From: Botryllus schlosseri
Lineage: Eukaryota
Assembly: GCA_051294905.1 (NCBI GenBank)
Contig: CM119371.1
Span: forward strand, 28,770,001-28,834,000
Length of the DNA stretch: 64,000 bases
Reading direction: 5' to 3'
Program-made: the position numbers and the translations under genes
Notes under the pieces: model-generated
The model's database searches: none
Told to the model about the DNA's origin: nothing
The model's input: the letters and a program-made list of their open reading frames with translations, nothing else
Shown: positions 7,900-43,370 of the stretch, one piece after another
Position numbering within the stretch: the stretch's first letter is position 1
Layout of the letters: each line of letters starts with the position of its first letter

Positions 7900-8391
7900 G
7901 CTTGACCTTTTCTGTGACGTCACACTTCAAAAGGAGCCTTCCTCTCGTATGGCTGTTTTGACTCAAACTTTATAGCGCCCTCTCGCGGTACGGTTTTCTC
8001 GTGGCCGGTCGTACGAATCCAGTATGGCCCGGCCTTTCACTATAGGCCCATCTCCGGGTTTCTTTCACTATAGGCCTATACTTGCATACTATTTACAATT
8101 TTAATGTTACTTTTTCTTATTAATATCTACTAAAACCCTGAAAAAATGGTACGTTTTTCCCGACTTCGTGGTCGGTTGACTAAAAAAATATGGTCATTTT
8201 CCGGCTGAATTCTCGGTAAACCCTTCGGTCCGTCATTTGGCCGCTGATTTCCTAAATCTCGATCCAATTTCCACGTACGTTTAACCAAAATTCCTAAAAA
8301 GAGGACATTTAGGCGTCCTCCGAGGACACTTTCAAAAAAGTCAAAAAAGAAGACAACTCCTCTTAAAAGAGGACGTTTGGTAATCCTAATA

Positions 8392-18458: not shown

Positions 18459-19224
18459 CTCATATGAAACCAGTTTCAACTTTCAAATCTCTCATTTGGA
18501 GATTTGCTACAGCGACCGCGGGTGACTCATTTTGTCCGCGTTGGTGACCCCTGTAATAGAGACATTTAAATCACGAAGCTCGAAGAACATTTTCAAGAAT
18601 TAATTTAATCTCTCGAAAATACTCTATAACAGGAGTGGGCAAACTTTTGTGCTCGCGGGCCGCATTCAACATCTGAATCCATTCGCGGGCCGCAGCACTA
18701 TATAAAATTGGGATTATAAACCAAAACTAAATATTGGTGTTTGATTATATAGTGACGACATGGAGACAATATATATGCTTATTTAGAACAAAACAAACAT
18801 TGCTATTGATGATATCGTACACGCGTCAAAAACAGTGGCGAGATTTCATAGGCTGGTGTAGCTCAATAACCAATTTGTCAAAACTATAGAGATGATTGTC
18901 AGTTGTCCCGTGTCCCCCTTATCGTCATATCACAAAACGCAACCATGAAGCTAGCAAGCCTAACGAATAGTTTGATGGCATGGAAGGTTACGACTGTTTT
19001 AAATATGAAATTCAGATTAAATACAGAGCAATAATTAGGAATTGGATTGAGACAAGCTTCGCGCCTCCCTTCAGATGCTTTCACGCCCCTCAGTTTGAGA
19101 ACCACTTCCTTAGAATTATCATGGTGTAATATACTAAGAAAAAGTTTAATCAAGTCCCTGCAGTAGTGAGGCTAAGGAACTTTGGCGCCCGCCAATCCCA
19201 GAAGACCACGTCGCCTTAATTGTC

Positions 19225-19405
19225 ACGCCTACATTGCCACATCATCCGCCCATTGCCGCACCTATAGCACACCCATTGCCACACCTATAGGACGCCCCTT
19301 GCCACATCATCAGCCACGCCCATTGCTACACCATTTGATACGTCATCAGCCACGCGCATTGCCACATCACTCGCCTATATAACGCCCATTGCTACATCAT
19401 CATGA
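19225..19405. repeat. Subterminal iterated motif cccattgc(c/t)aca (mirror copy 33590-33770)
   Basis: About 7 imperfect copies at roughly 20-40 bp spacing, close to each terminus. Confidence 0.75.
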
Positions 19406-19651
19406 TTATGCGTACTGAGCTGTTTTTGAGAACATGAATTCTCGCGTAATACACTAAACGTTGAACTAGATTTCATAACGTCACCACAGAAGAATTAGGC
19501 AACTATCTTGCTCTAGGTTCTAGGTTCGATCCCTGTAGTCGCCGCATTTCATACGATTAAGCGCTTTTCATATCTCCTAACACTTTACTCAGTCTCATTG
19601 AAATAGCCTTGTATAGTGTACGAGTTCATTTTATTTCGTAAAAAGAGCATA

Positions 19652-20158
19652 TCAATGATATCGCTGATCGTTATTGCGTCGATTCGCGTTCTGAAATCCT
19701 CCAGGTCGGTTGATGTTTCGAGGTACACCGCTTTGCTGCCATCCGACGCCGCGATCCGAGTTCTTGCGTTCGATCTGGCCGTTTTGTTTGATGTAGCGAT
19801 CACTGGCTTGTAGTATATACGATACGAGCGGAAGGTCAGGATTAGGAACAACTACGCTGGGCGAATAGATGACAAATTCATCAGCCGGATTCAGAGGTTG
19901 ATAATGCTCGATCCCATCGCGAGTATACGTAACGACCAAACCTCCTTCATGCTTCAGAGTGGCTCGATATTTCTGAATGGTCCCACTTGTGGAATGTACA
20001 AAGAGTTGATCCGAGGTCAATTCTGCTCCATTCGAGGCTTCGATACGTAATTTTGTGATGTCATTAAAAAGATACAAGTCTTTTCTATAGGGCCCCTGGG
20101 GCAGAATAGTATCTCCACGGATTGCTAGACTCATTCTTTGAAAAGAAATATCATACAT
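19652..20158 (-). CDS. Orphan ORF2, left-arm copy (~160-180 aa, start codon uncertain)
   Basis: Intronless open frame directly downstream of and overlapping the BIR ORF. AATAAA follows on the minus strand at 19630-19635. Confidence 0.6.
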   Translation of the reverse strand: MYDISFQRMSLAIRGDTILPQGPYRKDLYLFNDITKLRIEASNGAELTSDQLFVHSTSGTIQKYRATLKHEGGLVVTYTRDGIEHYQPLNPADEFVIYSPSVVVPNPDLPLVSYILQASDRYIKQNGQIERKNSDRGVGWQQSGVPRNINRPGGFQNANRRNNDQRYH

Positions 20159-20732
20159 AAGTACAACAGTCATCACGCAATTCCACTTCACCATCAAATT
20201 TAGTCAAGCCTCTTCTTATATTAGGTGTCGCATAACAGACATTACGAATATATTGCAACCCCTTGCGCTTTATGAGAAAAGGACACGTAGGATAAAACTT
20301 TGCATGTTCGAGCCAGGGGTCATCGCACGGCAACCAATTTTGAAACAGCCCTCCGCATGAGAAACACTTTAAATGATCCTTATAGCCCAAATAGAACAAT
20401 CCGCAGTCTGCGAGCTCGGCTCCGGAGGTATTGATATTATCCGGCCACCGCATAAATGTGCTTAGTCTACGAGCATAGCGTACCATGTTATAGAAAACGG
20501 GATCATTCAATGGGGAGACAGTTACATCTCTATGCTTCGCATAGCATTCATAAATCTTTTCCCCTCTGTTATTTATCATAGCTTGGTACTGTTCAATGGG
20601 ACTCATCCGAGTTTCATCTTCGCTTATTTCTATGCTACTCGTGGTACCGATGCAAGCGCAGTTGAATGTAGCGTAATTTGTAGGATCCACACTACGCTTA
20701 GTTAGAGAATCGCTTTGATCAATGTTCGACAT
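20151..20732 (-). CDS. Single-BIR IAP-like protein, 193 aa, left-arm copy
   Basis: RLSTF..WP...LADCGLFYLGYKDHLKCFSCGGLFQNW...DDPWLEHAKFYPTCPFL, with the canonical CX2CX16HX6C pattern. No RING domain; intronless. Confidence 0.93.
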   Translation of the reverse strand: MSNIDQSDSLTKRSVDPTNYATFNCACIGTTSSIEISEDETRMSPIEQYQAMINNRGEKIYECYAKHRDVTVSPLNDPVFYNMVRYARRLSTFMRWPDNINTSGAELADCGLFYLGYKDHLKCFSCGGLFQNWLPCDDPWLEHAKFYPTCPFLIKRKGLQYIRNVCYATPNIRRGLTKFDGEVELRDDCCTYV

Positions 20733-22420
20733 TGCTATCCGAATTGATATACTCTCATGATCAGTATGCTTTATATAGATATTGAGCTATGCACCATCGA
20801 AAAATGTGCTTGGTACCAATCGAATGATAGGCCCACACACCTAATTTCGTAACTAACTACATAATCCCTAGTAACGTAGTAAGACGCATAACGGAATTTA
20901 CGCAAAATCGGTATTGCTCTGCGATAATTCCGATCACTATGTTTTGATAATGACGTGCTTCCGAGAAATAAATAACATTCATTTTACGTTAGATGATACT
21001 TTTCCTTGATATTCTATCATGTGTGTTTAGGACTAATGCAACATCACTATGTTTACGACATGTCTGATTTGAACACACTAATTTTGCGTATCACACCACA
21101 AACTGCGCAAGCCTTCAAAGTTGATAAGTAAACAAGTATTTGCACTCCATCAGAATACTAAAGTAGCTTTTCGCGTATATGTACCTGTAGCTAATACTAA
21201 AGTGCTTATGATTTCAGATTGCTTCAACTTCATGACATTTTCAGTATTAAACAGAAATATAGAACTAGAATACTAACTTTTATTCGTAAATAGCTACTTC
21301 TACCTTAATTTAATGGATTTATCTGAGATCATTGCTTTACTTAATCCCTCCAAAATGTGCATTGTACAAGTACCTCAGCATCGAAACCCTCTGGCTATAA
21401 CTATCTGGCGGTATAATTGCAGCAATACTCGAGTACTAATTTAAAAGTAGCTTAGGTATCTAAATGAGCTCTGAGTCGCTGTTATCTCGCATCTGACCAT
21501 GGAGTTAACACCGGTATTACCTTCGCTCACTGATGAAAAAGATGAAAGTTATTAAAGAAAGCAGATTTGTATGAAAACTCGTTAAATAGAAGTAAAAGTA
21601 GCCTTGAAACATAACTACTTACTGAAAAATCGTTACGTAGAAGTGGGGTTAGTCTACGAACATAAACACCTACTTACTTTTAATCTCAACTTGTACTTGT
21701 ATTCGTACTTTACCTTTACACGGCGTTTTTGTATAATGTATACTAATTTTATTAAAAATAAACCAAAAGGACAAATATAATTGATCAAATTCATTCATTT
21801 ATGCAAAAAATTGAGAGTCTTGTCGTGATGGTCCGTTTCGAAATGCAAGCGGATGAACTAGACCAAAAGTTTCGAAGATGCGTTTTATAATTGCTCTAGG
21901 TGTGAAATAGACATCGCACTCTTGCGGGGAAACAACATGAATTCAGTCTTCACACCACAGAAACACAGCCGCTTGGTTAACATCACAAAACCGCAATTGA
22001 ACTCAAGATTGTCATACACGGAATCGCTGTTAACGATGTCTGACTGCGGCGTTTCGACGAGTAACGAATTCTCGTATTTAGTATTGATTGTGACACATAG
22101 TCAAAACAGCGACAGTTTTCACAACCCGGTACATACATTGAACCAACTGATGTAAGGTGAAACACTACGTTCGCAGCAAAAAAAAAGTTTGCAGGGCATG
22201 ACCACCACCAACATATAGAGTAGTGAGTGAGTAATTAAACTACATACCCCGATTTTACTATATTCCGAGATCCGGATCACGATTCAAGTCTACCTGAGAA
22301 TCCGAACTACCCTGTGAAGTTGATATATCAAGTTGTGAACCGTGAAAGGGTTGTAATCTCGGTGAAATAGTGTGCGACACATTTTTCCACAAGTCGAATG
22401 CATGTCGGTTCATACTAAGA

Positions 22421-22625
22421 CCATTAGGAATTTGCACAATGACAGGTTATTGAAACCGATGCCAAAACTCAGTATAATAGATTGATATTGATCGCGTGTA
22501 TGTTTGACATATATGCAGCATCTTGGATCGGCGGTGGAGCACTGAATGGCACTGCAGAAGTCATCTACTCTCCTAAGCTTGGACTGATCTGGGCTATTGC
22601 GCCACTGTGTTACGGGTTTAGTGTT
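22421..22625 (+). pseudogene. SLC5A7: Captured fragment of a high-affinity choline transporter (SLC5A7/CHT1-like) gene: exon end, 73-bp intron, truncated exon
   Basis: Splicing gt(22446)..ag(22518) gives PLGICTMTASWIGGGALNGTAEVIYSPKLGLIWAIAPLCYGFSV, matching the CHT1 motif TMTATWVGGGYINGTAE as recalled from memory. Confidence 0.85.
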
Positions 22626-23044
22626 CAAGTACTTTATCTTTACACGACGTTTTTTGTAAAATGAATACTAATTTTATTAAAAAAATAAAAAATAAAAAAG
22701 AGCGAAAAATTACATTATATCCCGGAACGCAACAAGAAAAGTCGTATGAATTTGTAAACTACTTGTTCATGACATAATAATAATTCTACTTGTACACTTT
22801 TTCACATTTTATAACACTTTAAGTAATACTTAACAGTTTCAGTTTTAAATAAAATACGGAATATAAACTAATCGAAAAATTCGGTAACCAATTTCGCGTA
22901 GGCTATGCATGCATACAAATGAGGAAAGTTACATCAACGCGTGTTAAAGTAGCTGTATCGAGTTATCGAATGATTTTCTCCTTACATCAAAACAACTAGA
23001 ATGTATAACTAAATTAAAAAACGTATCTAAATGAGCTCCAGGGC

Positions 23045-24600
23045 ATTGTGATTATGCTGCATACCAAATTTCATCACACATTTCATGATGGAACAACTTT
23101 AAAACTAACGCATTTCTATAGCAACTTTTGCCTAAATCTGTTTTCGGTAGCGTGTACATATACATAGTCAGATTTAATGACAGAATTATCATGCTAATAT
23201 GTGACTCCTCACCTTGAAACTTGGTACGTAGTTGTAGGACATTGTGATTATGCAGCATACCAAATTTCCTCACGCATTTCATAATGGAACAACTTTAAAA
23301 CTAACGCGGTTCTACATCGACTTTTTGCGTACATCTGTTTTGCGTGGGGGGCGTAAAGCACGTACCTATACATGTCAACTTTAACAACGGAATTACCATG
23401 CTTAACATTGAATCCCAACTCGAAATTTGATACGTAGTTATAGGACATTATGGTAATGCACCATGCTAAATTTCATCACACATCTAATGATGGAGCACCT
23501 TTAAAACTAACGCAGTCGAATACCGACTTTTACGCATATCTGTTTTGCGCGAACATAGCATATACCTATACATAGTCAATTTTAATAGCGGAATTACCGT
23601 GTTAAACATTGAATTCCCACCTTGAAAGTTGGTACGCGGTTATAGGAGATTATAACAATGCACCATACCAAATCCCATCACACATTTCATGATGGAACAA
23701 CTTTAAAACTAACGCGGCTCTACATCGACTTTTTGCGTACATCTGTTTTGTGGGAGCGTATAGCACGTAGCCTACCCATACATAGCCAACTTTAATAACG
23801 GAATTACCATGCTTAACATTGAATCCCAACTCGAAACTTGATACGTAGTTATAGAACATTATGGCAATTCACCATGCTAAATTTCATCACACATCTAATG
23901 ATGGAACACCTTTGAAACTATCGCAGTCGAATACCAACTTTTACGCATATCTGTTTTTCGTGAACATAGCATATACCCATACATAGTCAATTTTAATAAC
24001 AGAATTAGCATGCTAAACATTAAATTCTCACCTTGAACGTTGATACGCGGTTGTAGGACATAATAACAATGCACCATACCAAATTTCGTCAGACATTTCA
24101 TGATGTAACACCTTTAAAACCAACGCAGTTCTATACAGACTTTTGGCTAAATCTGTTTTTCCGTAGCGTAGCACGTACCTATACATAGTCAACTTTAATA
24201 ACGGATTTAGCATGTTAATAATCGACTCCCCACCTTGAAACTCGGTATGCAGTTGTAAGACATTATGACAATGCACCATGTCAAATTTTGTTACGCATTT
24301 CATGATTGAACAACTTTAAAACTAACGCAGTTCCATACCGACTTTTGCGAGTGCGTAGCACGTACCTATATGCATACTCAACTTTCATAACGGAATTACC
24401 GAGCTAAACATTGAATGCGCAACTTGAAGATTGGTTCACAGGTGTAGGGCAGTATGACAATGGAACACATCAAATTTCATCACACATTTCATGATGGAAC
24501 ACCTTTAAAACTAACGCAGTTCTATACCAACTTCGCGTGAATCTGTTTGCGGGAGCGTAGCACGTACCTATGCGTGATCAACTTTAGTGATGGAATTACA
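23045..24600. repeat. Tandem array of ~190-210-bp diverged units (about 8), left arm
   Basis: The motif aaatttcatcacacatttcatgatggaacaactttaaaactaacgc recurs about every 200 bp. Confidence 0.9.
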
Positions 24601-25568
24601 TATGTAATTAAGTTTCAACACTTTTACAATGATTCGTCTTGCTTCCTATAACACCCCACTCGAGAAAATGCGTCGTAGGATATAGATGAAACTAGCACCA
24701 CTCATCAAGACCGCTGAAAACAGTACATTTCAACATTTAATAGCAGTAAATTTCTAGTAAAGTACAAGACGTGATGATTTCCGAGTGAGTTAAAAAGTAA
24801 GTATTGCAGGTATAGTTTACCTGAAAACCGAATACTCTGAAATAGAAGTAGATGCAGTGTAAATAGTTAATCACTTAATTAAGTTTAGTGCAAGCAGATA
24901 AAACCTATACTTGAGTAGTACAAAATGCACGAGTACTTCGCTATCGCCTCCCTCCACGTAATAAGTGTCTACGGTTTAAGACTGCTTTTACCGATACTCG
25001 TCGGTTTCAGTTTTAGATAGAATTCGGAAACCAAATAATTTCATAAACATAAGCTAATTTAATGAATTTACTCGAATGTACTATGCCGCGCTGATAAGAT
25101 TAATTATAATATACTTATCATGTTACAGCGATTTTTCTAGCGTAGAAATCTTTAAAATGTAGAAAGCAGGCCAAATGAAGATATTCGTTGAGCTGAATAA
25201 ACATAAAAAATACTCTAGACTACTTTATCGGTACTTTACAGTTACAGTTTTAGATAAAATTTGTCCCTTTCACCTATAATTACAACTCCTCGCTATCTAA
25301 ACATGTTTAGAATATATTATTTGCGATGATACGAACCCGTGAAGTACTCAAGTTGCTTTTCGTAGGATATAGATGAAACTGACAACACTCACCAAGACCA
25401 GTGATCCACTGAAAAAAGTACATTGTAGCAGTAAAGTCCTACTAAAGTACAAGAAGTAATGATTTCCCAGTTAGTTAAAAAGTAAGTATTGAGGTATAGT
25501 TTGCTCGAAAAAGCGAAAAACTCTGAAATAGAAGTAGATGCAGTGTAAATAGGTAATCACTTCATTAA

Positions 25569-25698
25569 GTATTCGTTTAGTTGTATAGACATAAAAAACA
25601 TTCCCGCGCGCTCTTAAACAAAACACTTCCTAACCCTACCACCTAATACTAAGACGCGCGCGGGAATGTTTTTTATGTCTATACAACTAAACGAATAC
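25569..25698. repeat. Perfect 43-bp-stem hairpin at the palindrome apex
   Basis: 25569-25611 is the exact reverse complement of 25656-25698. The loop includes cctaaccctaccacctaa. Confidence 0.95.
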
Positions 25699-27019
25699 CC
25701 ATCGGCCTGCTTACTACATTTTAAATATTCTCTCCACTATTGTGTATACAACAATATACTTCTCTTAGTAAGCAATTTCTCGTGAATTCCGAAGCACATT
25801 GACACGTGTTAACTTCTATATTCGGTGATAGTATCATTTTCATGTCTGATAATGTTACTTGTCAAGGTGATACAAACGTAAGCTCAAACTACTTTAAAAT
25901 TTAAAGTCTTACCAAATTTTATCTAACACTGAAACTGTCGAGTACCGATAAAGTACTCTAAAACCTAGTCACTTTTTACGTGGAGGGAGAACATAGCGAA
26001 GTACTTGTAAATTTGCAGTACTTAAGTATAGGTTTGGCCTGCTTGCGCTATACTTAATGAAGTGATTACCTATTTACACTGCATCTACTTCTATTTCAGA
26101 GTTTTTCGCTTTTTCGAGCAAACTATACCTCAATACTTACTTTTTAACTAACTGGGAAATCATTACTTCTTGTACTTTAGTAGGACTTTACTGCTACAAT
26201 GTACTTTTTTCAGTGGATCACTGGTCTTGGTGAGTGTTGTCAGTTTCATCTATATCCTACGAAAAGCAACTTGAGTACTTCACGGGTTCGTATCATCGCA
26301 AATAATATATTCTAAACATGTTTAGATAGCGAGGAGTTGTAATTATAGGTGAAAGGGACAAATTTTATCTAAAACTGTAACTGTAAAGTACCGATAAAGT
26401 AGTCTAGAGTATTTTTTATGTTTATTCAGCTCAACGAATATCTTCATTTGGCCTGCTTTCTACATTTTAAAGATTTCTACGCTAGAAAAATCGCTGTAAC
26501 ATGATAAGTATATTATAATTAATCTTATCAGCGCGGCATAGTACATTCGAGTAAATTCATTAAATTAGCTTATGTTTATGAAATTATTTGGTTTCCGAAT
26601 TCTATCTGAAACTGAAACCGACGAGTATCGGTAAAAGCAGTCTTAAACCGTAGACACTTATTACGTGGAGGGAGGCGATAGCGAAGTACTCGTGCATTTT
26701 GTACTACTCAAGTATAGGTTTTATCTGCTTGCACTAAACTTAATTAAGTGATTAACTATTTACACTGCATCTACTTCTATTTCAGAGTATTCGGTTTTCA
26801 GGTAAACTATACCTGCAATACTTACTTTTTAACTCACTCGGAAATCATCACGTCTTGTACTTTACTAGAAATTTACTGCTATTAAATGTTGAAATGTACT
26901 GTTTTCAGCGGTCTTGATGAGTGGTGCTAGTTTCATCTATATCCTACGACGCATTTTCTCGAGTGGGGTGTTATAGGAAGCAAGACGAATCATTGTAAAA
27001 GTGTTGAAACTTAATTACA

Positions 27020-29950
27020 TATGTAATTCCATCACTAAAGTTGATCACGCATAGGTACGTGCTACGCTCCCGCAAACAGATTCACGCGAAGTTGGTATAG
27101 AACTGCGTTAGTTTTAAAGGTGTTCCATCATGAAATGTGTGATGAAATTTGATGTGTTCCATTGTCATACTGCCCTACACCTGTGAACCAATCTTCAAGT
27201 TGCGCATTCAATGTTTAGCTCGGTAATTCCGTTATGAAAGTTGAGTATGCATATAGGTACGTGCTACGCACTCGCAAAAGTCGGTATGGAACTGCGTTAG
27301 TTTTAAAGTTGTTCAATCATGAAATGCGTAACAAAATTTGACATGGTGCATTGTCATAATGTCTTACAACTGCATACCGAGTTTCAAGGTGGGGAGTCGA
27401 TTATTAACATGCTAAATCCGTTATTAAAGTTGACTATGTATAGGTACGTGCTACGCTACGGAAAAACAGATTTAGCCAAAAGTCTGTATAGAACTGCGTA
27501 GGTTTTAAAGGTGTTACATCATGAAATGTCTGAAGAAATTTGGTATGGTGCATTGTTATTATGTCCTACAACCGCGTATCAACGTTCAAGGTGAGAATTT
27601 AATGTTTAGCATGCTAATTCTGTTATTAAAATTGACTATGTATGGGTATATGCTATGTTCACGAAACACAGATATGCGTAAAAGTTGGTATTCGACTGCG
27701 ATAGTTTCAAAGGTGTTCCATCATTAGATGTGTGATGAAATTTAGCATGGTGAATTGCCATAATGTTCTATAACTACGTATCAAGTTTCGAGTTGGGGTT
27801 CAATGTTAAGCATGGTAATTCCGTTATTAAAGTTGGCTACGTGCTATACGCTCCCACAAAACAGATGTACGCAAAAAGTCGATGTAGAGCCGCGTTAGTT
27901 TTAAAGTTGTTCCATCATGAAATGTGTGATGGGATTTGGTATGGTGCATTGTTATAATCTCCTATAACCGCGTACCAACTTTCAAGGTGGGAATTCAATG
28001 TTTAACACGGTAATTCTGCTATTAAAATTGACTATGTATAGGTATATGCTATGTTCGCGCAAAACAGATATGCGTAAAAGTCGGTATTCGACTGCGTTAG
28101 TTTTAAAGGTGCTCCATCATTAGATGTGTGATGAAATTTAGCATGGTGCATTACCATAATGTCCTACAACTACGTATCAAGTTTCGAGTTGGGATTCAAT
28201 GTTAAGCATGGTAATTCCGTTGTTAAAGTTGACTATGTATAGGTACGTGCTATACGCCCCCACGCAAAACAGATGTACGCAAAAAGTCGATGTAGAACCG
28301 CGTTAGTTTTAAAGTTGTTCCATTATGAAATGCGTGAAGAAATTTGGTATGCTGCATAATCACAATGTCCTACAACTACCTACCAAGTTCCAAGGTGAGG
28401 AGTCACATATTAGCATGATAATTCTGTTATTAAATCTGACTATGTATATGTACACACTACCGAAAACAGATTTAGGCAAAAGTTGCTATAGAACTGCGTT
28501 AGTTTTAAAGTTGTTCCATCATGAAATGTGTGATGAAATTTGGTATGCAGCATAATCACAATGCCCTGGAGCTCATTCAGATACGTTTTTTAATTTAGTT
28601 ATACATTCTAGTTGTTTTGATGTAAGGAGAAAATCATTCGATAACTCGATACAGCTACTTTAACACGCGTTGATGTAACTTTCCTCATTTGTATGCATGC
28701 ATAGCCTACGCGAAATTGGTTACCGAATTTTTCGATTAGTTTATATTCCGTATTTTATTTAAAACTAAGTCGATTATTAACATGCTAAATCCGTTATTAA
28801 AGTTGACTATGTATAGGTACGTGCTACGCTACGGAAAAACAGATTTAGCCAAAAGTCTGCATAGAACTGCGTTGGTTTTAAAGGTGTTACATCATGAAAT
28901 GTCTGACGAAATTTGGTATGGTGCATTGTTATTATGTCCTACAACCGCGTATCAACGTTCAAGGTGAGAATTTAATGTTTAGCATGCTAATTCTGTTATT
29001 AAAATTGACTATGTATGGGTATATGCTATGTTCACGAAAAACAGATATGCGTAAAAGTTGGTATTCGACTGCGATAGTTTCAAAGGTGTTCCATCATTAG
29101 ATGTGTGATGAAATTTAGCATGGTGGATTGCCATAATGTTCTATAACTACGTATCAAGTTTCGAGTTGGGATTCAATGTTAAGCATGGTAATTCCGTTAT
29201 TAAAGTTGGCTATGTATGGGTAGGCTACGTGCTATACGCTCCCACAAAACAGATGTACGCAAAAAGTCGATGTAGAGCCGCGTTAGTTTTAAAGTTGTTC
29301 CATCATGAAATGTGTGATGGGATTTGGTATGGTGCATTGTTATAATCTCCTATAACCGCGTACCAACTTTCAAGGTGGGAATTCAATGTTTAACACGGTA
29401 ATTCCGCTACTAAAATTGACTATGTATAGGTATATGCTATGTTCGCGCAAAACAGATATGCGTAAAAGTCGGTATTCGACTGCGTTAGTTTTAAAGGTGC
29501 TCCATCATTAGATGTGTGATGAAATTTAGCATGGTGCATTACCATAATGTCCTACAACTACGTATCAAATTTCGAGTTGGGATTCAATGTTAAGCATGGT
29601 AATTCCGTTGTTAAAGTTGACATGTATAGGTACGTGCTATACGCCCCCCACGCAAAACAGATGTACGCAAAAAGTCGATGTAGAACCGCGTTAGTTTTAA
29701 AGTCGTTCCATTATGAAATGCGTGAGGAAATTTGGTATGCTGCATAATCACAATGTCCTACAACTACGTACCAAGTTTCAAGGTGAGGAGTCACATATTA
29801 GCATGATAATTCTGTCATTAAATCTGACTATGTATATGTACACGCTACCGAAAACAGATTTAGGCAAAAGTTGCTATAGAACTGCGTTAGTTTTAAAGTT
29901 GTTCCATCATGAAATGTGTGATGAAATTTGGTATGCAGCATAATCACAAT
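27020..29950. repeat. Right-arm ~200-bp array (about 14 units), enlarged by a 1.37-kb tandem duplication
   Basis: 27395-28767 is repeated from 28768 to ~30155. The first copy lacks 15 nt present in the second copy and in the left arm. Confidence 0.9.
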
Positions 29951-30369
29951 GCCCTGGAGCTCATTTAGATACGTTTTTTAATTTAGTTATACATTCTAGT
30001 TGTTTTGATGTAAGGAGAAAATCATTCGATAACTCGATACAGCTACTTTAACACGCGTTGATGTAACTTTCCTCATTTGTATGCATGCATAGCCTACGCG
30101 AAATTGGTTACCGAATTTTTCGATTAGTTTATATTCCGTATTTTATTTAAAACTGAAACTGTTAAGTATTACTTAAAGTGTTATAAAATGTGAAAAAGTG
30201 TACAAGTAGAAATATTATTATGTCATGAACAAGTAGTTTACAAATTCATACGTTTTTTCTTGTTGCGTTCCGGGATATAATGTAATTTTTCGCTCTTTTT
30301 TATTTTTTATTTTTTTAATAAAATTAGTATTCATTTTACAAAAAACGTCGTGTAAAGATAAAGTACTTG

Positions 30370-30574
30370 AACACTAAACCCGTAACACAGTGGCGCAATA
30401 GCCCAGATCAGTCCAAGCTTAGGAGAGTAGATGACTTCTGCAGTGCCATTCAGTGCTCCACCGCCGATCCAAGATGCTGCATATATGTCAAACATACACG
30501 CGATCAATATCAATCTATTATACTGAGTTTTGGCATCGGTTTCAATAACCTGTCATTGTGCAAATTCCTAATGG
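30370..30574 (-). pseudogene. SLC5A7: Mirror copy of the SLC5A7-like fragment
   Basis: Reverse complement of 22421-22625. Confidence 0.85.
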
Positions 30575-32217
30575 TCTTAGTATGAACCGACATGCATTCG
30601 ACTTGTGGAAAAATGTGTCGCACACTATTTCACCGAGATTACAACCCTTTCACGGTTCACAACTTGATATATCAACTTCACAGGGTAGTTCGGATTCTCA
30701 GGTAGACTTGAATCGTGATCCGGATCTCGGAATATAGTAAAATCGGGGTATGTAGTTTAATTACTCACTCACTACTCTATATGTTGGTGGTGGTCATACC
30801 CTGCAAACTTTTTTTTTGCTGCGAACGTAGTGTTTCACCTTACATCAGTTGGTTCAATGTATGTACCGGGTTGTGAAAACTGTCGCTGTTTTGACTATGT
30901 GTCACAATCAATACTAAATACGAGAATTCGTTACTCGTCGAAACGCCGCAGTCAGACATCGTTAACAGCGATTCCGTGTATGACAATCTTGAGTTCAATT
31001 GCGGTTTTGTGATGTTAACCAAGCGGCTGTGTTTCTGTGGTGTGAAGACTGAATTCATGTTGTTTCCCCGCAAGAGTGCGATGTCTATTTCACACCTAGA
31101 GCAATTATAAAACGCATCTTCGAAACTTTTGATCTAGTTCATCCGCTTGCATTTCGAAACGGACCATCACGACAAGACTCTCAATTTTTTGCATAAATGA
31201 ATGAATTTGATCAATTATATTTGTCCTTTTGGTTTATTTGTAATAAAATTAGTATACATTATACAAAAACGCCGTGTAAAGGTAAAGTACGAATACAAGT
31301 ACAAGTTGAGATTAAAAGTAAGTAGGTGTTTATGTTCGTAGACTAACCCCACTTCTACGTAACGATTTTTCAGTAAGTAGTTATGTTTCAAGGCTACTTT
31401 TACTTCTATTTAACGAGTTTTCATACAAATCTGCTTTCTTTAATAACTTTCATCTTTTTCATCAGTGAGCGAAGGTAATACCGGTGTTAACTCCATGGTC
31501 AGATGCGAGATAACAGCGACTCAGAGCTCATTTAGATACCTAAGCTACTTTTAAATTAGTACTCGAGTATTGCTGCAATTATACCGCCAGATAGTTATAG
31601 CCAGAGGGTTTCGATGCTGAGGTACTTGTACAATGCACATTTTGGAGAGATTAAGTAAAGCAATGCTCTCAGATAAATCCATTAAATTAAGGTAGAAGTA
31701 GCTATTTACGAATAAAAGTTAGTATTCTAGTTCTATATTTCTGTTTAATACTGAAAATGTCATGAAGTTGAAGCAATCTGAAATCATAAGCACTTTAGTA
31801 TTAGCTACAGGTACATATACGCGAAAAGCTACTTTAGTATTCTGATGGAGTGCAAATACTTGTTTACTTATCAACTTTGAAGGCTTGCGCAGTTTGTGGT
31901 GTGATACGCAAAATTAGTGTGTTCAAATCAGACATGTCGTAAACATAGTGATGTTGCATTAGTCCTAAACACACATGATAGAATATCAAGGAAAAGTATC
32001 ATCTAACGTATAATGAATGTTATTTATTTCTCGGAAGCACGTCATTATCAAAACATAGTGATCGGAATTATCGCAGAGCAATACCGATTTTGCGTAAATT
32101 CCGTTATGCGTCTTACTACGTTACTAGGGATTATGTAGTTAGTTACGAAATTAGGTGTGTGGGCCTATCATTCGATTGGTACCAAGCACATTTTTCGATG
32201 GTGCATAGCTCAATATC

Positions 32218-32253
32218 TATATAAAGCATACTGATCATGAGAGTATATCAATT
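32218..32253 (+). promoter_or_regulatory. TATA box plus Inr-like motif upstream of the BIR ORF (mirror 20742-20777)
   Basis: tatataaa at 32218-32225, tcaatt 30 nt later at 32248-32253, ATG at 32263. Confidence 0.55.
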
Positions 32254-32262
32254 CGGATAGCA

Positions 32263-32844
32263 ATGTCGAACATTGATCAAAGCGATTCTCTAACTAAGCG
32301 TAGTGTGGATCCTACAAATTACGCTACATTCAACTGCGCTTGCATCGGTACCACGAGTAGCATAGAAATAAGCGAAGATGAAACTCGGATGAGTCCCATT
32401 GAACAGTACCAAGCTATGATAAATAACAGAGGGGAAAAGATTTATGAATGCTATGCGAAGCATGGAGATGTAACTGTCTCCCCATTGAATGATCCCGTTT
32501 TCTATAACATGGTACGCTATGCTCGTAGACTAAGCACATTTATGCGGTGGCCGGATAATATCAATACCTCCGGAGCCGAGCTCGCAGACTGCGGATTGTT
32601 CTATTTGGGCTATAAGGATCATTTAAAGTGTTTCTCATGCGGAGGGCTGTTTCAAAATTGGTTGCCGTGCGATGACCCCTGGCTCGAACATGCAAAGTTT
32701 TATCCTACGTGTCCTTTTCTCATAAAGCGCAAGGGGTTGCAATATATTCGTAATGTCTGTTATGCGACACCTAATATAAGAAGAGGCTTGACTAAATTTG
32801 ATGGTGAAGTGGAATTGCGTGATGACTGTTGTACTTATGTATGA
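32263..32844 (+). CDS. Single-BIR IAP-like protein, 193 aa, right-arm copy
   Basis: Same protein as the left copy except HGDV versus HRDV. Confidence 0.93.
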   Translation: MSNIDQSDSLTKRSVDPTNYATFNCACIGTTSSIEISEDETRMSPIEQYQAMINNRGEKIYECYAKHGDVTVSPLNDPVFYNMVRYARRLSTFMRWPDNINTSGAELADCGLFYLGYKDHLKCFSCGGLFQNWLPCDDPWLEHAKFYPTCPFLIKRKGLQYIRNVCYATPNIRRGLTKFDGEVELRDDCCTYV

Positions 32845-33343
32845 TATTTCTTTTCAAAGAATGAGTCTAGCAATCCGTGGAGATACTATTCTGCCCCAGG
32901 GGCCCTATAGAAAAGACTTGTATCTTTTTAATGACATCACAAAATTACGTATCGAAGCCTCGAATGGAGCAGAATTGACCTCGGATCAAATCTTTGTACA
33001 TTCCACAAGTGGGACCATTCAGAAATATCGAGCCACTCTGAAGCATGAAGGAGGTTTGGTCGTTACGTATACTCGCGATGGGATCGAGCATTATCAACCT
33101 CTGAATCCGGCTGATGAATTTGTCATCTATTCGCCCAGCGTAGTTGTTCCTAATCCTGACCTTCCGCTCGTATCGTATATACTACAAGCCAGTGATCGCT
33201 ACATCAAACAAAACGGCCAGATCGAACGCAAGAACTCGGATCGCGGCGTCGGATGGCAGCAAAGCGGTGTACCTCGAAACATCAACCGACCTGGAGGATT
33301 TCAGAACGCGAATCGACGCAATAACGATCAGCGATATCATTGA
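32837..33343 (+). CDS. Orphan ORF2, right-arm copy (possible starts ATG 32801, 32837 or 32861)
   Basis: Overlaps the BIR stop (ATGTATGA at 32837-32844). AATAAA at 33360-33365. Differs from the left copy at DQIFV versus DQLFV. Confidence 0.6.
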   Translation: MYDISFQRMSLAIRGDTILPQGPYRKDLYLFNDITKLRIEASNGAELTSDQIFVHSTSGTIQKYRATLKHEGGLVVTYTRDGIEHYQPLNPADEFVIYSPSVVVPNPDLPLVSYILQASDRYIKQNGQIERKNSDRGVGWQQSGVPRNINRPGGFQNANRRNNDQRYH

Positions 33344-36300
33344 TATGCTCTTTTTACGAAATAAAATGAACTCGTACACTATACAAGGCTATTTCAATGA
33401 GACTGAGTAAAGTGTTAGGAGATATGAAAAGCGCTTAATCGTATGAAATGCGGCGACTACAGGGATCGAACCTAGAACCTAGAGCAAGATAGTTGCCTAA
33501 TTCTTCTGTGGTGACGTTATGAAATCTAGTTCAACGTTTAGTGTATTACGCGAGAATTCATGTTCTCAAAAACAGCTCAGTACGCATAATCATGATGATG
33601 TAGCAATGGGCGTTATATAGGCGAGTGATGTGGCAATGCGCGTGGCTGATGACGTATCAAATGATGTAGCAATGGGCGTGGCTGATGATGTGGCAAGGGG
33701 CGTCCTATAGGTGTGGCAATGGGTGTGCTATAGGTGCGGCAATGGGCGGATGATGTGGCAATGTAGGCGTGACAATTAAGGCGACGTGGTCTTCTGGGAT
33801 TGGCGGGCGCCAAAGTTCCTTAGCCTCACTACTCCCTGCATTAATTCGATTTTTGGTACGCATTTTATCAATATTTTAATAAGTTTCTTTAGACTCTCGC
33901 GGGCCGCACAGAACGGTGTTGCGGGCCGTAGTTTGCCCACCCCTGCTCTATAATCTATCTTGGTTTACCTTACGAAATACTTTTGAGTCACTTTCGAGTA
34001 GCCTACGCTCCCCACCCTATTAGGGAGTTTGGGGTGCGGCAGTTAAAGACCTGGTAAGAATGCAAATCGTTGGGTGCGATAAATCATCCCCTATAAGGTT
34101 GGGCAATGGGTACATTATGAATTAACAAGCGAATGACGCATGATGTAGAAAGTTGATATCTCATTAGGCCTTTTCATCGCAATCCATATATTGTCTGCCA
34201 ATATATCTTCTAAAATTATGGTCCTAAGAAACAAAATGAATGTAATCGTGAGTAATCGTGATTCCTTTTCCAATGTAATCGTAATCGTAATCGACTGCTT
34301 CCTGATTTTGCTGTAATCGTAATCGCAATCGATTACATTCATGAAGTAATCACCCCATGTCTATGGTTCACACACAGAGAACGAACGTGAACCTCACGTT
34401 CACACCATCCCTAATAGTTATATAACGTGTATTCAAACTTTCTTCGCGTTTCGCGCGATTTATTGCCACATACTATCTTGATATCAGCATGGGTAGCCAT
34501 AGGCTACTAGCCTAGTCTTCCCCCAATGAAAATACGCATAATTTATAGGGATAGGCATTTCGGCATCCGGCATTACCACGTCACGACATACTAAGACGTT
34601 GACAACGACGTTTCAGCCAACATGCGGCTCTTCGAAATGTACTGCGAAAAAGCTCGGCGGCGAGGGAACCTTGGCTGGAAAGGACCGAGTCATGTTGGCC
34701 GAAACCGATATATAATATTGAATTTTCCCTTGTCCATAGACGCTTGAATGGCTGGCGCCTAATGTTCTTGTCCTGGCAATCTGAGCCCCACATTATAATT
34801 GCCACCCATAGAGATAAATCATCCACTCCGTGAAGAAATATAACTTCTTAGTCAACACCACAGCAGTATTATTATAAAGTGGATTTTAGCCAACGCAAGA
34901 GGATTCCCCGTAAAAATCTAGAATTAGCAGTTTCTAGTCCGGTGATGTAACTCTTTTCTGGATCCCAAATTAATAATGCTCTATTACACTCGAAGAGTTT
35001 TCGGGTGCCTCTTTTCAAGAGTTATCGGTACACTAATTACCATTTAGGTGAGAACCTCTCCTGTGCACAGAACTCTCATGATGACATGCACAGCACACGA
35101 GATGTCGATTATCGAGACCGATACTTGGAACTTTACAGATTATCGATATCGGCCTATGATGGCTGATATCGCGGCCGATATTTCATGTTAAAAAAAATCA
35201 AAAACTAAACTTGCAGGTCAAACCGCTGAGAATACATGCTGAGCTTCCTGCATTACAACTTACTTCTACTGGACTGGGCTGCATTTCTGCATCACGTTTT
35301 GAATTTTTGGGTAGCCTAAATTTCAATGAATGTGCAAAATTCAGCAACAATTCTTTCCGATTTCAGTTTTGCTTGCTTGTTGTATGCATACAGCTTTTTG
35401 TGGCATGTACAAGTGCCATCTTGCCCAATATATAATATTTTTGGAGGAAATGGTTCTCTACTCCTTCCATAATATCGGCCTATCGGTTATCGGCGATGTG
35501 AGTGTGTCGATAATAGGTATCGGTATCGGCCTGCAAAATCAATATCGGTCGACCTCTATTGCTCACTGTTATTAAGCCCATTTGCATGGCCGATTGGGTC
35601 AGCTTCGAAGCTGACTCGTCAATCCGACTCCCTCATTTTCGAAAAAGGGAAAAAGGCAAATTGCTACCACCATCTTGAGCCAAATCCGTTTCGCGCAGAC
35701 TGTGAGGCGGCTTGAGCAATAGCAGTGCAATAGCAGAGCAATAGCTCCCGACTCTACCATTTCTACCAACATTTATAAAAATAAAATCACGAACTCGGCA
35801 CCCATCTGGTTGAAAAGAAGAGCCATATCATTGCATGATACTGATGTTCCAACGATATGCACGTGGTCTTATTTGCTAAGCGTGACGGATTATGAAGCGA
35901 GTATAGCAAATTAGCAAACCATATAACTTGCACAGCTCAGCATCAGGGAAATACGCAAGATGTGCTACGTTATTCTGGAAATGCGAAAACTATTCGGATT
36001 ATTGAACTTGCGTAGCATAATCCCCTAGCTTAATCCCAGACGGCTGTATCACTAGATTGGTTATCTATAGTATCACTTGAGCTGTGACAACTTTTGCCTA
36101 TGAAATTGTAAACTCAATCGAATTTTCAGCACTTCGGTCAGCCGTCACATGACGTCACTCCAACACGACTTAGCTCCGAGACGACCTCACCATGTAAATA
36201 TGGGCTTATTTGGGTTTGCCAAATTTTGGAAATCTGAAAAGTGGACACTTTTTCAAATTTTTCAGACTTGCAATCCCGAATAAATGGTAAAAATGTTTCC

Positions 36301-37159
36301 CACTTCGTGGTCTGTTGACCATAAAAAATAAGGTCAGCTTTCCGGCTCAACTCCCGAAATAGCCGCCGGTGCGTCACTTCAGCGCTGATTTCCGGTATCT
36401 CAGTCGAATTTTGCCCTATATTTAACCAGAATCCTCGAAAAAGAGGATGAAATCTCAAAATAGAGGACATTGTGCGTCTTCCGAGGACACTTTCAAAAAT
36501 GTCAAAAAATAGGGTGTGTGGCAGAGGTCTCTAACTCAAATTTGCTCGCAGGCCAATTTCCTAGTTTTTGATGACGCCGCGGGCCGCAGCATCAATAATA
36601 GGGATATTCAATGTATAATTGCCAAGGAGGCCATATGTGACGGTACCATGCAGACAGGTATTCCAGAAACATCGTGGAAATTTAATTTACTAATTTACTA
36701 TTTTACTATTCACGCTTGACACGGTAAAAAATCACATTTTCAAATATTTGAATAAAATTGCTTTTGTGCCGGGCATAATTTTTTTTAATTAATGAGTTCT
36801 AGACATCATGCGAGAGGATGACATCGTAAAACTGTCGGGTTGCAATATAGCAGCTAGTGGAACTTTGACGTACCACAATTTTATGTAGAATATTTTAAAA
36901 TATACTGAAGATTGATCTGATATCAGAGCCTTTTAGCGGTATTGCCTAATCCTGCTTTTGATATAGTCGTGAAAAGTATCGGCTATTGTTACTGTCATTG
37001 CCCAAGTCAAATTAGATCATCGTTAGATTCTGCCTTCGATATTATTGGAACATATCAATAACAACTTGAGTATAATCATTATTGAGCCATAGTAATGTCA
37101 TTGCTTTTTAGCGCTCGTACCCCTTGTGCTTCCAATAATATTTCTTGTAGCCCCCGTGC

Positions 37160-40639: not shown

Positions 40640-41982
40640 GGCTCAGGGAACACCAGATAAGAAACACTGGTCTAAACACAACAGCGTGCGACGAATTGGT
40701 GAAATTGGAAGCGAGGTAACAAATATTGGAAAAAGAATCAGCATTTTAAAATAACGGGGTTCCAATTTTCAACCCAAACTTCATGTGTACGGCACTGCAC
40801 ACGATGTGACACCAGGGCATTCACCAGTCGACAAATGATCGAGTCTAATTGCCTGCAACTGACAATAGCGTGTATTCGAAAATCTTGACCTTCGGCGGAA
40901 ACCGTCAGACTGGCCCACTGAACCTCTAGTGTTCCATGGCTACGAAGTTCTTAGTAAGGACCACTATTATAGTCGCTTTATTACATGCTGTGTTTTCCTG
41001 CCCTCACATTAGGATTGACCTCGGGATTGCACTGGGAATCAGATTGCAAGGACATTTCTATATTTATATAAAAAGAATCAGTTCGCCCTGACAGGCGCGA
41101 AACTTGGAGTCAAATAAAGATGAATCAAAATCTGTCAAATATTCGGAAGTCAATTCGTTTCATAAGTTAAAATTGCACGTTGACGACCGCATAATGGTCC
41201 TTCCGCCGCCGCAGGTTGGCCACCCCTGCTGTAGACGGATCCAGGGTATATGTCCTATGCTATAGTATGGTGCAGTTGTTCTCAGGACCGTAACAGCACT
41301 TCGTCAGCCCCCCAAAAAAACGTTGGTCTTGGGCCCCCATATGGTAATTAAACAATCTTCTGGGGCGGTTTGCCCCCAGACCCGCCACATGTCTCTCCGT
41401 TTTTGCACCGACATTTGTTATTCTGTTTGTATGGTGCAGAACAACGCGCGAAGCCCGAAAAAATTGTCGAATTCATGATTCAATCGGCCAATATCATCGG
41501 AAAATTGCATATATATTGCTATCAAATTTTATCCTCTCTCTGTCCACGCAATCAGATTTACCGGTAGAGCTCAATGAGGTGTCTCGAAAAATGTAGGGCC
41601 CGTAAACAAAAATTAAACATATTCCGGCGGACCCGTCGGAAAGGTATAGTGACATGGTTACATGATGTTATTTCGTGACCTCAAGTCCAAGTTCAAGTTT
41701 ATTCATAAAATATAAAATTTCATCTTTTCAAAACATCACAAGACTGCAATACAACGTATGGAAGGAAGATGCCGGAACGACTAGGAGTAGTATTTGGAGA
41801 TCAGATCTCCTGTCTGCTATGTCAAAAGACATCGCAATCGCCCAAACGTACTAAACTAAAAGACGCACACAATTTCAAATTGGTATTTCTGCACGGGAAA
41901 ATAATTTTTGTCTGCGGAATGGTATTTGTCTCGTGGGGTTCAGATTGCCAAGACAGGAACATTCGGCGGCAGCCATTTAGGC

Positions 41983-43370
41983 GGTTCCATACCAATGCCG
42001 AGAAAACCATGACCGAGAATGTAAATTACCGAGAATTTACTTCACCGAGAATGGCTATTACCGAGAATGGACAAGATCGAGAATGGCCATTACCGAGAAT
42101 AGACCAGTGTTGGGATGACTCGAGTCACCTTTTTCGTATGACTTGACTTGACTCGAGACGCTTGGCTAAAATGACTTGACTTGACTTGACTCGGCGTATC
42201 AGAAATGTGGATTGACTCGTGACTCGAAGCAAAATTCACGAGTCAATTTCAAGTCATCAAGTAATCGGTGTCGATAAAATTCAGTGTATCTTGCATATGG
42301 TCGGATTGTTCTCGAAATGCTGGTGTAACCTGTTAGAGCGACCAATCATTCAATGATCGTGCGTTTTACTGAGCCTCCATTGTTCTCTCACACATAAATT
42401 GACCGCAAACGAAGTGATCCAAACTTACAGCATACGTTATCGTAAACTAGTATAGTAAAATAATTCAATAAAATAATGTCTATTTCTATTCTCTGTTCTT
42501 ACCTTAACTAAACCTCTTGTTTTATTGAAATCGAATTCGAATATAGCTTCTCCTCAACCATTGGCGCCCCCTCGAATTGTATCATATCAATTTGTAAATG
42601 GGTAATGTTACATGTAGTACATCTTATCAATTCGTTTCTCTATTCTCTATTTTGGTCGGTAACTATAAACTGTGCAATTACTTCCGTAGTTCAGCAGTGC
42701 TATACGTATATGTGAGCGAAACAGCGCCTTCTTGCATGTATATTTAACTATATATTCGTTCATTGGTTCAGACTCAATGACCACTAAATCTGTAATTCAG
42801 ACAGCTAGCAAAATGCAATGACGTAATCATGCCTCATGCTTCAAAAAGGCAACTTGACTTGAATTGTGACTTGACTCGTGACTTGACTTGACTTGACTCG
42901 ACTTGACTCGAGTCACCTCCAAAAATCGAGTGACTTGACTTGACTCGAGTCACCTTCGAAAATCGAATGACTTGACTTGACTCGAGTCAAAATGTGCAAT
43001 GACTCGAAATGAATCGTGACTCGAAGGTAGTGACTTGATCCCAACACTGGAATAGACACCATCGAGAATGGATATTACCGAGAATGGACAATGCCAAGAA
43101 TCTAACTTATTGGGACGGACGATGTCGGGATTGATACCCGAAAATCGACATAGAATGTGGCAACGCCGTGATGCACATACGCACGACCTGTACATATGCA
43201 TAACATGACTGCATTGCATATATTGCATTCTCGGCAATGTTCATTCTCGGTGGTGTCCATTCTCGGTAATGTCCATTTTTTGTGATGTCCATTCTCGGTA
43301 ATGTCCATTCTCGGTGGTGTCCATTCTCGGTAATGACATTCTCGGTAATGTTTTTTACGGTATTGACCGG
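41983..43370. mobile_element. Foldback-like MITE whose arms are 20-bp ccgagaatggac tandem repeats
   Basis: Direct-orientation units at 41995-42100 and 43050-43100, inverted units at 43225-43350. It sits inside a cagg.ccgtaac-family copy. Confidence 0.6.
42105..43049 (+). mobile_element. hAT-type MITE with gactt/gactc arrays
   Basis: TIR cagtgttgggat / atcccaacactg. Perfect TSD gaatagac at 42097-42104 and 43050-43057. Confidence 0.9.

Follow-up and report, generated by a model that had tools for sequence, protein, structure and literature searches.

A 14.7-kb palindromic element with Polinton-type ends in Botryllus schlosseri and its probable place in a multi-copy non-autonomous family

In this work we describe a palindromic element of about 14.7 kb that occupies positions 19162-33833 of a 64,000-nucleotide stretch of Botryllus schlosseri DNA (source contig locus 28770001-28834000; hereafter the window, by which positions are numbered unless a contig is named). 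We are confident that it is a member of a non-autonomous, palindromic Polinton/Maverick family. The ends of the element are Polinton-type, its insertion was made with the 6-bp duplication that is typical of the Polinton integrase, and it keeps only the cis-acting Polinton ends, plus an end-proximal BIR/IAP gene that is present twice. How the two arms came to mirror each other is a harder question. Turn-around or snap-back symmetrisation is a serious candidate for the cause, held with a little less than even confidence when it is judged by itself. For the joint statement, that the element is a helper-dependent palindromic Polinton derivative and that such symmetrisation explains its mirrored arms, we lean slightly in favour.

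The genome searches reported here cover an assembly of 495.5 Mb in 219 contigs, and positions beginning with C1, C4 and so on name its contigs. The comparison set consists of the window element and nine fetched elements, E1 to E9. Read evidence comes from short Logan contigs of public runs (X1, X4 and X6), no single one of which covers the whole element. The arms and the tandem arrays within them are as follows.

19162-25572, plus strand: left arm, 6411 nt, from repeat finding and direct comparison of the arms
26050-33833, minus strand: right arm, 7784 nt, from repeat finding and direct comparison of the arms
23060-24599, plus strand: left-arm tandem array, period 202/411 nt, 7.7/3.8 copies
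27056-29935, minus strand: right-arm tandem array, 1373 nt longer than the left-arm array

The inverted repeat is beyond chance. It is made of two pairs of blocks, 19162-24227 with 28768-33833 (5066 nt) and 23780-25572 with 26050-27842 (1793 nt), which flank 477 nt at 25573-26049. The initial annotation of this DNA had proposed inverted arms of 6.4 and 7.8 kb around this spacer, and its coordinates are confirmed. Its description of the arms as reverse complements holds for their position, but not for their identity. A direct comparison shows arms that are complementary without being identical, with 99.6% identity outside the tandem array. The mismatches number 19 in 5066 ungapped positions and one in 973 near the centre; the 19 are divided into 11 transitions and eight transversions, with a single one in a CpG context. 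The arms also differ by 1373 nt in length, a difference that lies wholly inside the tandem array. A joint that is specific to this array (24227 to 22841/22844) is present in contigs of runs X1 and X4, and the junction between the centre and the right arm is found in a contig of run X6 (record 24, covering 25706-26099). Apart from a 355-bp asymmetry beside the centre, described below, and the difference in array length, the element is self-complementary nearly throughout.

The features at the ends of the element are these.

19156-19161, no strand: left copy of the target-site duplication, CCCTGC; the same hexamer stands at 33834-33839
33834-33839, no strand: right copy of the target-site duplication, CCCTGC, a perfect 6-bp duplication
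19162-19211, plus strand: terminus, with AGTAGT, variable positions 7-30 and then the conserved subterminal motif CCAATCCCAGAAGACCACGT at 19192-19211
19247-19332, plus strand: subterminal 12/23-nt direct repeats (CCCATTGCCACA units), with a mirror copy at 33665-33748

The element begins with AGTAGT and ends with ACTACT, between flanking CCCTGC repeats, exactly as first annotated. Other copies of the terminus allow a more general test of this boundary. The terminal 299 nt match 41 genomic places (the best 40 of 481 candidates were scored), many of which are inverted pairs 5-24 kb apart, and AGTAGT stands at the start of 29 out of 30 extrapolated termini, followed by G or A, so the terminal A belongs to the element. 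The subterminal motif CCAATCCCAGAAGACCACGT, with at most one mismatch, occurs 163 times forward and 162 times in reverse in the genome, whereas the reversed control occurs in neither direction (0/0). When the length of the target-site duplication is tabulated for the paired elements, i.e. the window element and the nine fetched pairs, a perfect 6-bp duplication is found in 10 out of 10: CCCTGC, AATATT, TACGCA, TATATC, AATGTC, GGGAAC, ATCTTG, CACGTG, GTTACT and TATAGC. The proposal of Polinton-type ends is therefore upheld. An alternative reading of the junction, with an 8-bp tccctgca repeat and GTAGTG ends, had been left open by the initial annotation and is not sustained: it fits only two of the ten elements, the window element and E8.

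Positions 7-30 of the terminus (19168-19191 in the window) are highly variable among elements and modular-looking, e.g. TTTGGCGCCCG, TTATACGCCGG and TTTGTTACGCA. This stretch sits between the constant AGTAGT and a constant CCAATC.CAGAAGGCCACGT, and within each palindromic element it is identical at both ends.

Contigs of run X4 join the left flank, through CCCTGC-A, to the right flank TTAATTCGATTTT, which gives an uninterrupted target sequence. Since the left flank is itself repeated, we do not take this to be an empty allele: the left 200 nt have 2593 candidates in the genome, and the best paralogue is 82% identical overall and 93% identical over the last 107 nt. The insertion sits within a high-copy repeat (18600-19161 and 33840-33960), where the contig depth is far above that of the element.

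The coding content of the arms is best described by comparison with E2, the only autonomous-type element in the comparison set. The following features recur in mirrored form.

19186-20834, plus strand: segment common to autonomous Polintons, 92-93% identical to E2, from the polymerase-proximal end
19655-20203, minus strand: 183-codon open frame without a Pfam match, mirrored at 32792-33340 (plus strand)
20154-20786, minus strand: BIR (IAP-like) open frame, 211 codons from stop to stop, first Met at codon 19, mirrored at 32209-32841 (plus strand)

The first of these features, 1.67 kb in each arm, is the sole part of the arm that matches E2, and holds the terminus, the 183-codon frame and the BIR frame. 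Against the end of another polymerase-bearing element the same segment shows 93% identity. The BIR domain (PF00653) is recognized in the 211-codon frame with an E-value of 1.9e-18, and both arms keep the frame intact, their two versions differing by a single amino acid. It is also uninterrupted in 11 of the 14 other copies retrieved, two of which are duplicate rows for the two ends of E2. The rest of the arm (20.8-25.6 kb, about 4.7 kb) is matched piecewise in other palindromic elements and has no counterpart in E2. Among the frames of the window element we found no polymerase, rve integrase, ATPase or capsid gene, whether in the list of open reading frames, by Pfam or by comparison with E2; having no polymerase frame, the element cannot be an autonomous Polinton. 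The claim that it carries no replication, integration or capsid genes is thus correct as far as it goes, yet the arms are not gene-free, as each has an intact BIR frame.

In this Polinton lineage the BIR gene faces outward at the polymerase-proximal end. From copy to copy its BIR domain is almost invariant and its N-terminal 60 residues vary.

E2 (C4:11847318-11865366, 18,049 bp) shares the terminus of the window element. Its Pfam matches are an rve integrase (PF00665, 4.3e-13) with a Chromo domain (2.7e-8), a Pox_A32 ATPase (PF04665, 8.3e-9, above the cut-off) and BIR at both ends; no protease was identified among the helper proteins in the Pfam results for E2. A further protein, with a weak Pfam match, is a candidate double jelly-roll (DJR) capsid protein. 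Its Atlas neighbours score 0.98, and 15-24% of their members carry DJR-like_dom; virus capsid clusters score 0.96. The large open reading frame of E2 (L036:3237-6431, minus strand) has one in-frame stop, and contains ..SRYD.., DANALYL, KTIGNSAFG and ETDTDS, which we take to be exonuclease and polymerase motifs. Among its homologues 54 of 74 carry PF03175, the best with 37% identity and an E-value of 1.6e-232. In the genome this frame matches 43 places (the best 43 of 318 candidates were scored), and at 17 of these the frame is unbroken, 1293-1303 aa long and 94-96% identical, so the lineage is abundant and looks recently active. A profile search of the genome with PF03175 gave no match; it gave none in the control genomes either and is therefore uninformative. 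Long elements that share the terminus of the window element and encode pPolB, rve integrase, a packaging ATPase and a probable DJR capsid protein, as the initial annotation had suggested looking for, are thus found in the same genome. The existence of such elements makes its proposal of integration in trans by a helper plausible.

A phmmer search of PDB chains with the polymerase frame returned zinc-finger matches only. The protein has a C2H2 zinc-finger-like stretch at residues 292-327 (from the PDB matches), and many of its homologues carry PF00096. There is also a weak RAP-domain match at residues 818-866, which fall between the exonuclease portion and the polymerase portion.

The two ends of the window element come from the same Polinton end, as had been proposed. 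A 1776-nt query from the BIR end of another polymerase-bearing element gave 40 long matches in 38 elements (the best 40 were scored). Thirty-six of the 38 carry the BIR-bearing segment of about 1.7 kb at a single end, where it lies some 3.4 kb upstream of the polymerase; the window element and E2 are the only two of the 38 that carry it at both ends. A typical autonomous element would then have a short inverted repeat, as there are no partner matches at the far end. With the polymerase-proximal BIR end on both sides, the window element requires an inverted duplication, which an internal deletion cannot yield. E2 is a second, independent case of inverted duplication in the same lineage. Its left 4.9 kb are an inverted copy of its right, polymerase-proximal end with 94.9% identity, and this copy holds a 426-aa open reading frame (94%) and the first 492 residues of the polymerase (91%) before it breaks off. 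The first 30 nt of the two E2 termini differ.

The centre of the element is made up of two features.

25569-25698, plus strand: family central hairpin, 130 nt; stem about 48 bp with GC clamp, loop about 33-45 nt
25696-26049, plus strand: 354-nt centre-flanking segment in a single surviving copy, its mirror copy deleted from the left arm

The central hairpin has a DNA fold of -52.1 kcal/mol (z -16.8). In sister elements the 354-nt segment is present on both sides of the hairpin; aligned with E9, the window element is without 355 bp to the left of it, and GTAT is found at both breakpoints. Matches of 98-100% to the 477-nt spacer are found at no fewer than 39 other places, nearly all with a second inverted copy that overlaps by about 122 nt. 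What had been read as a 477-bp spacer thus consists of the family hairpin and the one 354-nt segment that survives, i.e. a deletion remnant beside a symmetric centre, and not the turn-around loop that it had been taken for.

These centres define a multi-copy family. A 33-nt loop pattern has 99 and 93 occurrences on the two strands of the genome and none in the control (0/0), which gives about 190 centres; these copies share one ancestral palindrome centre with the window element. The arms of E1, E3, E4, E5, E6 and E9 are 99.3-99.7% alike over their whole length, and all six elements are centred on a hairpin equivalent to window 25569-25698. None of the six has an open reading frame of 200 aa or more, and E2 is the sole one of the nine fetched elements that does. 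Among 41 terminus pairs on C1-C5, taken from the best 40 scored or the first 100 listed places, 11 have a polymerase (mostly at 17.0-18.4 kb), 10 have the family loop, none has both and 20 are unclassified. The picture of one virus end copied back once, on which the initial annotation had settled, must accordingly be revised: the match to an autonomous element covers 1.67 kb per arm, and the other 4.7 kb or so, together with the centre, are those of a palindromic family that already existed and numbers about 190 copies.

The count of centres is affected by the assembly. In E1, E3 and E4 there are 100-N gaps at the middle of the element, midway between two centres (C11:4856437-4856536, C5:22926579-22926678 and C13:14016366-14016465, respectively), and the sequence on one side of each gap recurs unchanged on the other, down to the arm-specific variants. 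These are probably overlapping contig ends that were scaffolded together, inflating the elements to 20-24 kb. As E1, E3 and E4 show two centres about a gap, some of the roughly 190 centres have been duplicated by the assembly. At least four further places have two centres 6-9 kb apart.

Two of the fetched elements depart from the common plan. E7 (C3:14195667-14200777) is 5.1 kb long; its arms measure 2265 nt and are 99.7% alike, and the asymmetric 594 nt between them do not include the family centre. E7 may have arisen by a central deletion. E8 (C7:5595217-5603600) is 8.4 kb long, with 1612-nt inverted ends and a unique interior. Run X6, which is from organism B and carries a different species label, has contigs that are 97-100% identical to parts of the arm and centre, e.g. 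20988-21322 without differences and 25706-26099 with five, so the family spans more than one labelled species.

Within the family, the arms of one element are much more alike than the copies are to each other. In four segments the arm-to-arm divergence within palindromic elements is 0-0.5%, and between-element medians are 4.0-10.6%, with minimum distances of 0-1.35% in some segments. Subfamilies differ in the centre, where E1, E5 and E6 are only 82-88% like the window element, yet the arms of each element are near-identical (99.3-99.7%). Larger replacements also appear in both arms or in neither. The window element has 19886-20834 in each of its arms, and the six other palindromes have it in neither; 20916-21768 is found twice, once per arm, in the window element, E1, E5 and E6 and is missing altogether from the arms of E3, E4 and E9. 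E9 is the closest relative of the window element in the inner arm (98.6-99.0% over 22844-25572), and its outer 3 kb are unrelated in both arms. A palindrome that arose a single time and was thereafter propagated faithfully as duplex DNA would let its arms diverge as far as the copies have, and they have not done so.

The simplest account of this pattern would be that one arm is regularly the template for the other, and a mechanism can be outlined. The strand-displacing, protein-primed PolB of a helper would replicate the element, starting at the AGTAGT end, and the trinucleotide repeat there would permit jump-back initiation of the kind that occurs in adenovirus. At the central hairpin the polymerase would turn onto its own fresh strand, or the displaced strand would snap back and be repaired or copied; inverted chimeras are a usual by-product of phi29-type polymerases. 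One arm would template the other, and each cycle would give a near-perfect mirror-image duplex with two functional ends. The helper integrase would then insert this molecule with a 6-bp duplication. After insertion, 355 bp beside the centre would have been lost and the length of the array changed, as long palindromes tend to do.

The loop may preserve a trace of how the first centre was formed. At 25613-25657 in the window (44-45 nt) it resembles about seven degenerate CCCTAA units, and so do the centres of E5 and E3. When the loops are aligned to (CCCTAA)n, the score is reached by 22 of 5000 shuffles for the window element, none of 5000 for E5 and one of 5000 for E3. The host genome holds long TTAGGG arrays, one of them on the plus strand at C1:41.84 Mb. 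The likeness suggests that the founding turn-around could have been a telomerase-healed broken end that folded back. We can extend this to a broader scenario, which is tentative and on balance unlikely: the elements would be endogenised polintovirus satellites, whose effective genome is one arm and which replicate as a hairpin and a mirror dimer, through turn-around synthesis by the protein-primed polymerase of the helper. The founding hairpin would have been a broken linear element capped by the host telomerase, with a TTAGGG overhang that folded back and primed synthesis. The lengths of the elements, about 14-16 kb and near the 17-18 kb of the helper, would reflect packaging into helper capsids.

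Several other explanations have to be weighed against turn-around or snap-back symmetrisation, and the most substantial of them accepts the same identity for the element. It holds that the palindrome was formed once and moved as double-stranded DNA by the helper integrase, and that the arms are alike because the copies are young and the master copies underwent arm-to-arm gene conversion. A single origin agrees with the one centre in all copies examined, and a recent burst would give the small, non-zero and similar arm divergence among copies (0-0.5%) and the near identity of some elements in segments (minimum distances 0-1.35%). What makes us regard it as unlikely is that a kilobase-sized outer replacement in both arms needs two identical events, or conversion across non-homologous stretches; the window element and E9, with 99% identity in the inner arm and unrelated outer 3 kb, are such a case, and within each element the arms remain 99.3-99.7% alike even where subfamilies agree at no more than 82-88% in their centres. 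A single snap-back of one Polinton virus end just before insertion, which is the version first put forward for this DNA, would place the same polymerase-proximal BIR end at both ends and leave arms that are 99.6% alike. We consider it very unlikely nonetheless, because the match to the autonomous element stops at 1.67 kb per arm, the spacer is the remnant of a symmetric centre, and the centre and inner arms recur at 98-100% in at least 39 other places, with about 190 loops genome-wide. Of similarly low probability is a simple internal deletion of an autonomous Polinton with multi-kilobase inverted ends. Such parents do exist, as the 4.9-kb inverted ends of E2 hold the BIR gene, and butterfly polintons with gene-bearing inverted ends of about 2 kb are described in a preprint (10.1101/2025.02.07.637071). 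The window arms, however, leave the E2 sequence after 1.67 kb and run into family-specific sequence and the centre, the BIR end is at a single end in 36 of 38 elements, and none of the nine fetched elements is autonomous with the whole 6.4-kb arm in its inverted ends.

An assembly artefact, through a fold-back chimeric read or a mis-join, is a natural concern for any palindrome, and the gaps with identical repeated sequence in E1, E3 and E4 show that the assembler duplicated parts of some palindromes. For the window copy we find it hard to credit: this copy is gap-free and flanked by a perfect 6-bp target-site duplication, there are 20 differences between its arms, whose arrays are also unequal in length, other runs contain the right-arm array joint (X4) and the centre-to-right-arm junction (X6), and about 190 centres are spread across contigs. 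Membership of another superfamily, either hAT-like (8-bp tccctgca with GTAGTG ends) or of Foldback/Galileo type, is almost certainly wrong. The 8-bp reading does fit the window element taken alone, and long arms with tandem arrays are a feature of Foldback-type elements, but 8 bp suits two of ten elements where 6 bp suits ten of ten, 29 of 30 termini retain the terminal A, and elements with pPolB and rve genes have the same termini over 0.3-1.7 kb.

Several points weigh against the joint explanation towards which we lean. All of the evidence is from integrated copies in one assembly, with no extrachromosomal, hairpin or replicating form among them. The likeness of the arms could equally reflect a recent insertion of symmetric copies together with chromosomal arm-to-arm gene conversion, and the window arms are not perfectly alike, with 20 differences in 6039 compared positions. 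E2, the sole autonomous-type element in the comparison, has nothing that corresponds to about 4.7 kb of each arm, so a Polinton origin is shown for the terminal 0.3-1.7 kb only. Within E2 the capsid candidate has a weak DJR-like_dom match (E 0.0075; 16 bits, below the cut-off of 27), and its Atlas recognition value is low. The classification of terminus pairs, made from the best-scored or first-listed places, leaves 20 of 41 pairs without a class. Three of the nine fetched elements are gapped at the middle, where the assembler evidently struggled with palindromes. Finally, the uninterrupted target in X4 is a view of the target sequence, and may come from a paralogue rather than from an empty allele.

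It is useful to set the element beside known systems. Protein-primed self-synthesis is the assumed mode of Polinton replication, and the elements are believed to make virions; to our knowledge neither has been shown directly. The window element shares with Polintons/Mavericks the AG..CT ends with AGT repeats, the 6-bp target-site duplication, and termini that are held in common with elements encoding pPolB, rve, an A32 ATPase and a probable DJR capsid protein. It differs from them in being without the defining enzymes, in forming a near-complete palindrome of 14.7 kb where inverted ends of hundreds of bp to about 2 kb are usual, and in being one of about 190 family copies that share a single hairpin centre. 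A full-text literature search on Polinton/Maverick derivatives returned no palindromic non-autonomous forms; Repbase was outside this search, and a curated entry may exist there. Tlr1 is sometimes called a non-autonomous polinton, according to a 2016 article (PMC5499653). According to two preprints, butterfly polintons have inverted ends of about 2 kb that carry genes (10.1101/2025.02.07.637071), and protist virophages and polinton-like viruses have short terminal palindromes (10.64898/2026.07.28.741278).

Snap-back genomes offer another comparison; as defined in a review (PMC13506859) they have both ends from one parental end, are almost fully self-complementary and depend on a helper. The window element is like snap-back and copy-back genomes in that both its ends come from one parental end and it is self-complementary around a short turn-around. 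Unlike these genomes, which are transient in infection, the window family is inherited, endogenised and amplified in a host genome, and the greater part of each arm of the window element does not come from a parental virus. Copy-back by a strand-displacing polymerase yields mirror-image products in adenovirus, phi29-type systems and yeast linear plasmids. A DNA-virus precedent is reportedly given by Daniell and Mullenbach in 1978, in the form of defective adenovirus genomes with inverted duplications of the left end. Kikuchi et al. in 1985 are said to have found deletion derivatives of the Kluyveromyces plasmid pGKL1 that consist of a hairpin plasmid and a palindromic inverted dimer, both dependent on the parent. 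This hairpin plasmid would be the closest mechanistic precedent for a protein-primed replicon; the pGKL1 derivatives are cytoplasmic and non-integrated, whereas the window family is known from integrated copies alone.

Two further kinds of sequence have a similar outline. Foldback-type transposons (e.g. FB and Galileo) have very long inverted arms with tandem repeats, and many copies contain little else. They have other termini, other lengths of target-site duplication and another transposase superfamily, whereas the ends of the window element are Polinton ends. Large chromosomal palindromes, such as those of the human Y, have arms that are more than 99% alike around a short asymmetric spacer, and are kept so by arm-to-arm gene conversion. 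They are fixed, non-mobile and tens of kb to Mb in size; the window family is bounded by transposon ends and target-site duplications, and occurs at about 190 places.

A set of about 190 helper-dependent mirror-image derivatives with the same mosaics in both arms bears on the replication mode of Polintons. If the satellite reading were true, the mirrored mosaics would be the first natural footprint of Polintons copying as linear, strand-displacing replicons. The family gives testable material for research on both Polintons and defective viral genomes, and the Polinton lineage found here carries an IAP-like gene at its end. For those who assemble genomes, multi-kilobase palindromes of this kind break chromosome-scale assemblies, leaving 100-N gaps and duplicated arms.

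The window holds a few other frames outside the element. A 413-codon frame with 13 C2H2 zinc fingers at 44701-45939 (minus strand) is presumably an exon of a host gene, and indicates that the host is an animal. There are also two pairs of equal-length frames without a Pfam match, of 145 codons at 7524-7958 and 41709-42143 (both plus strand) and of 130 codons at 36141-36530 and 43110-43499 (both minus strand), which suggest other repeated elements.

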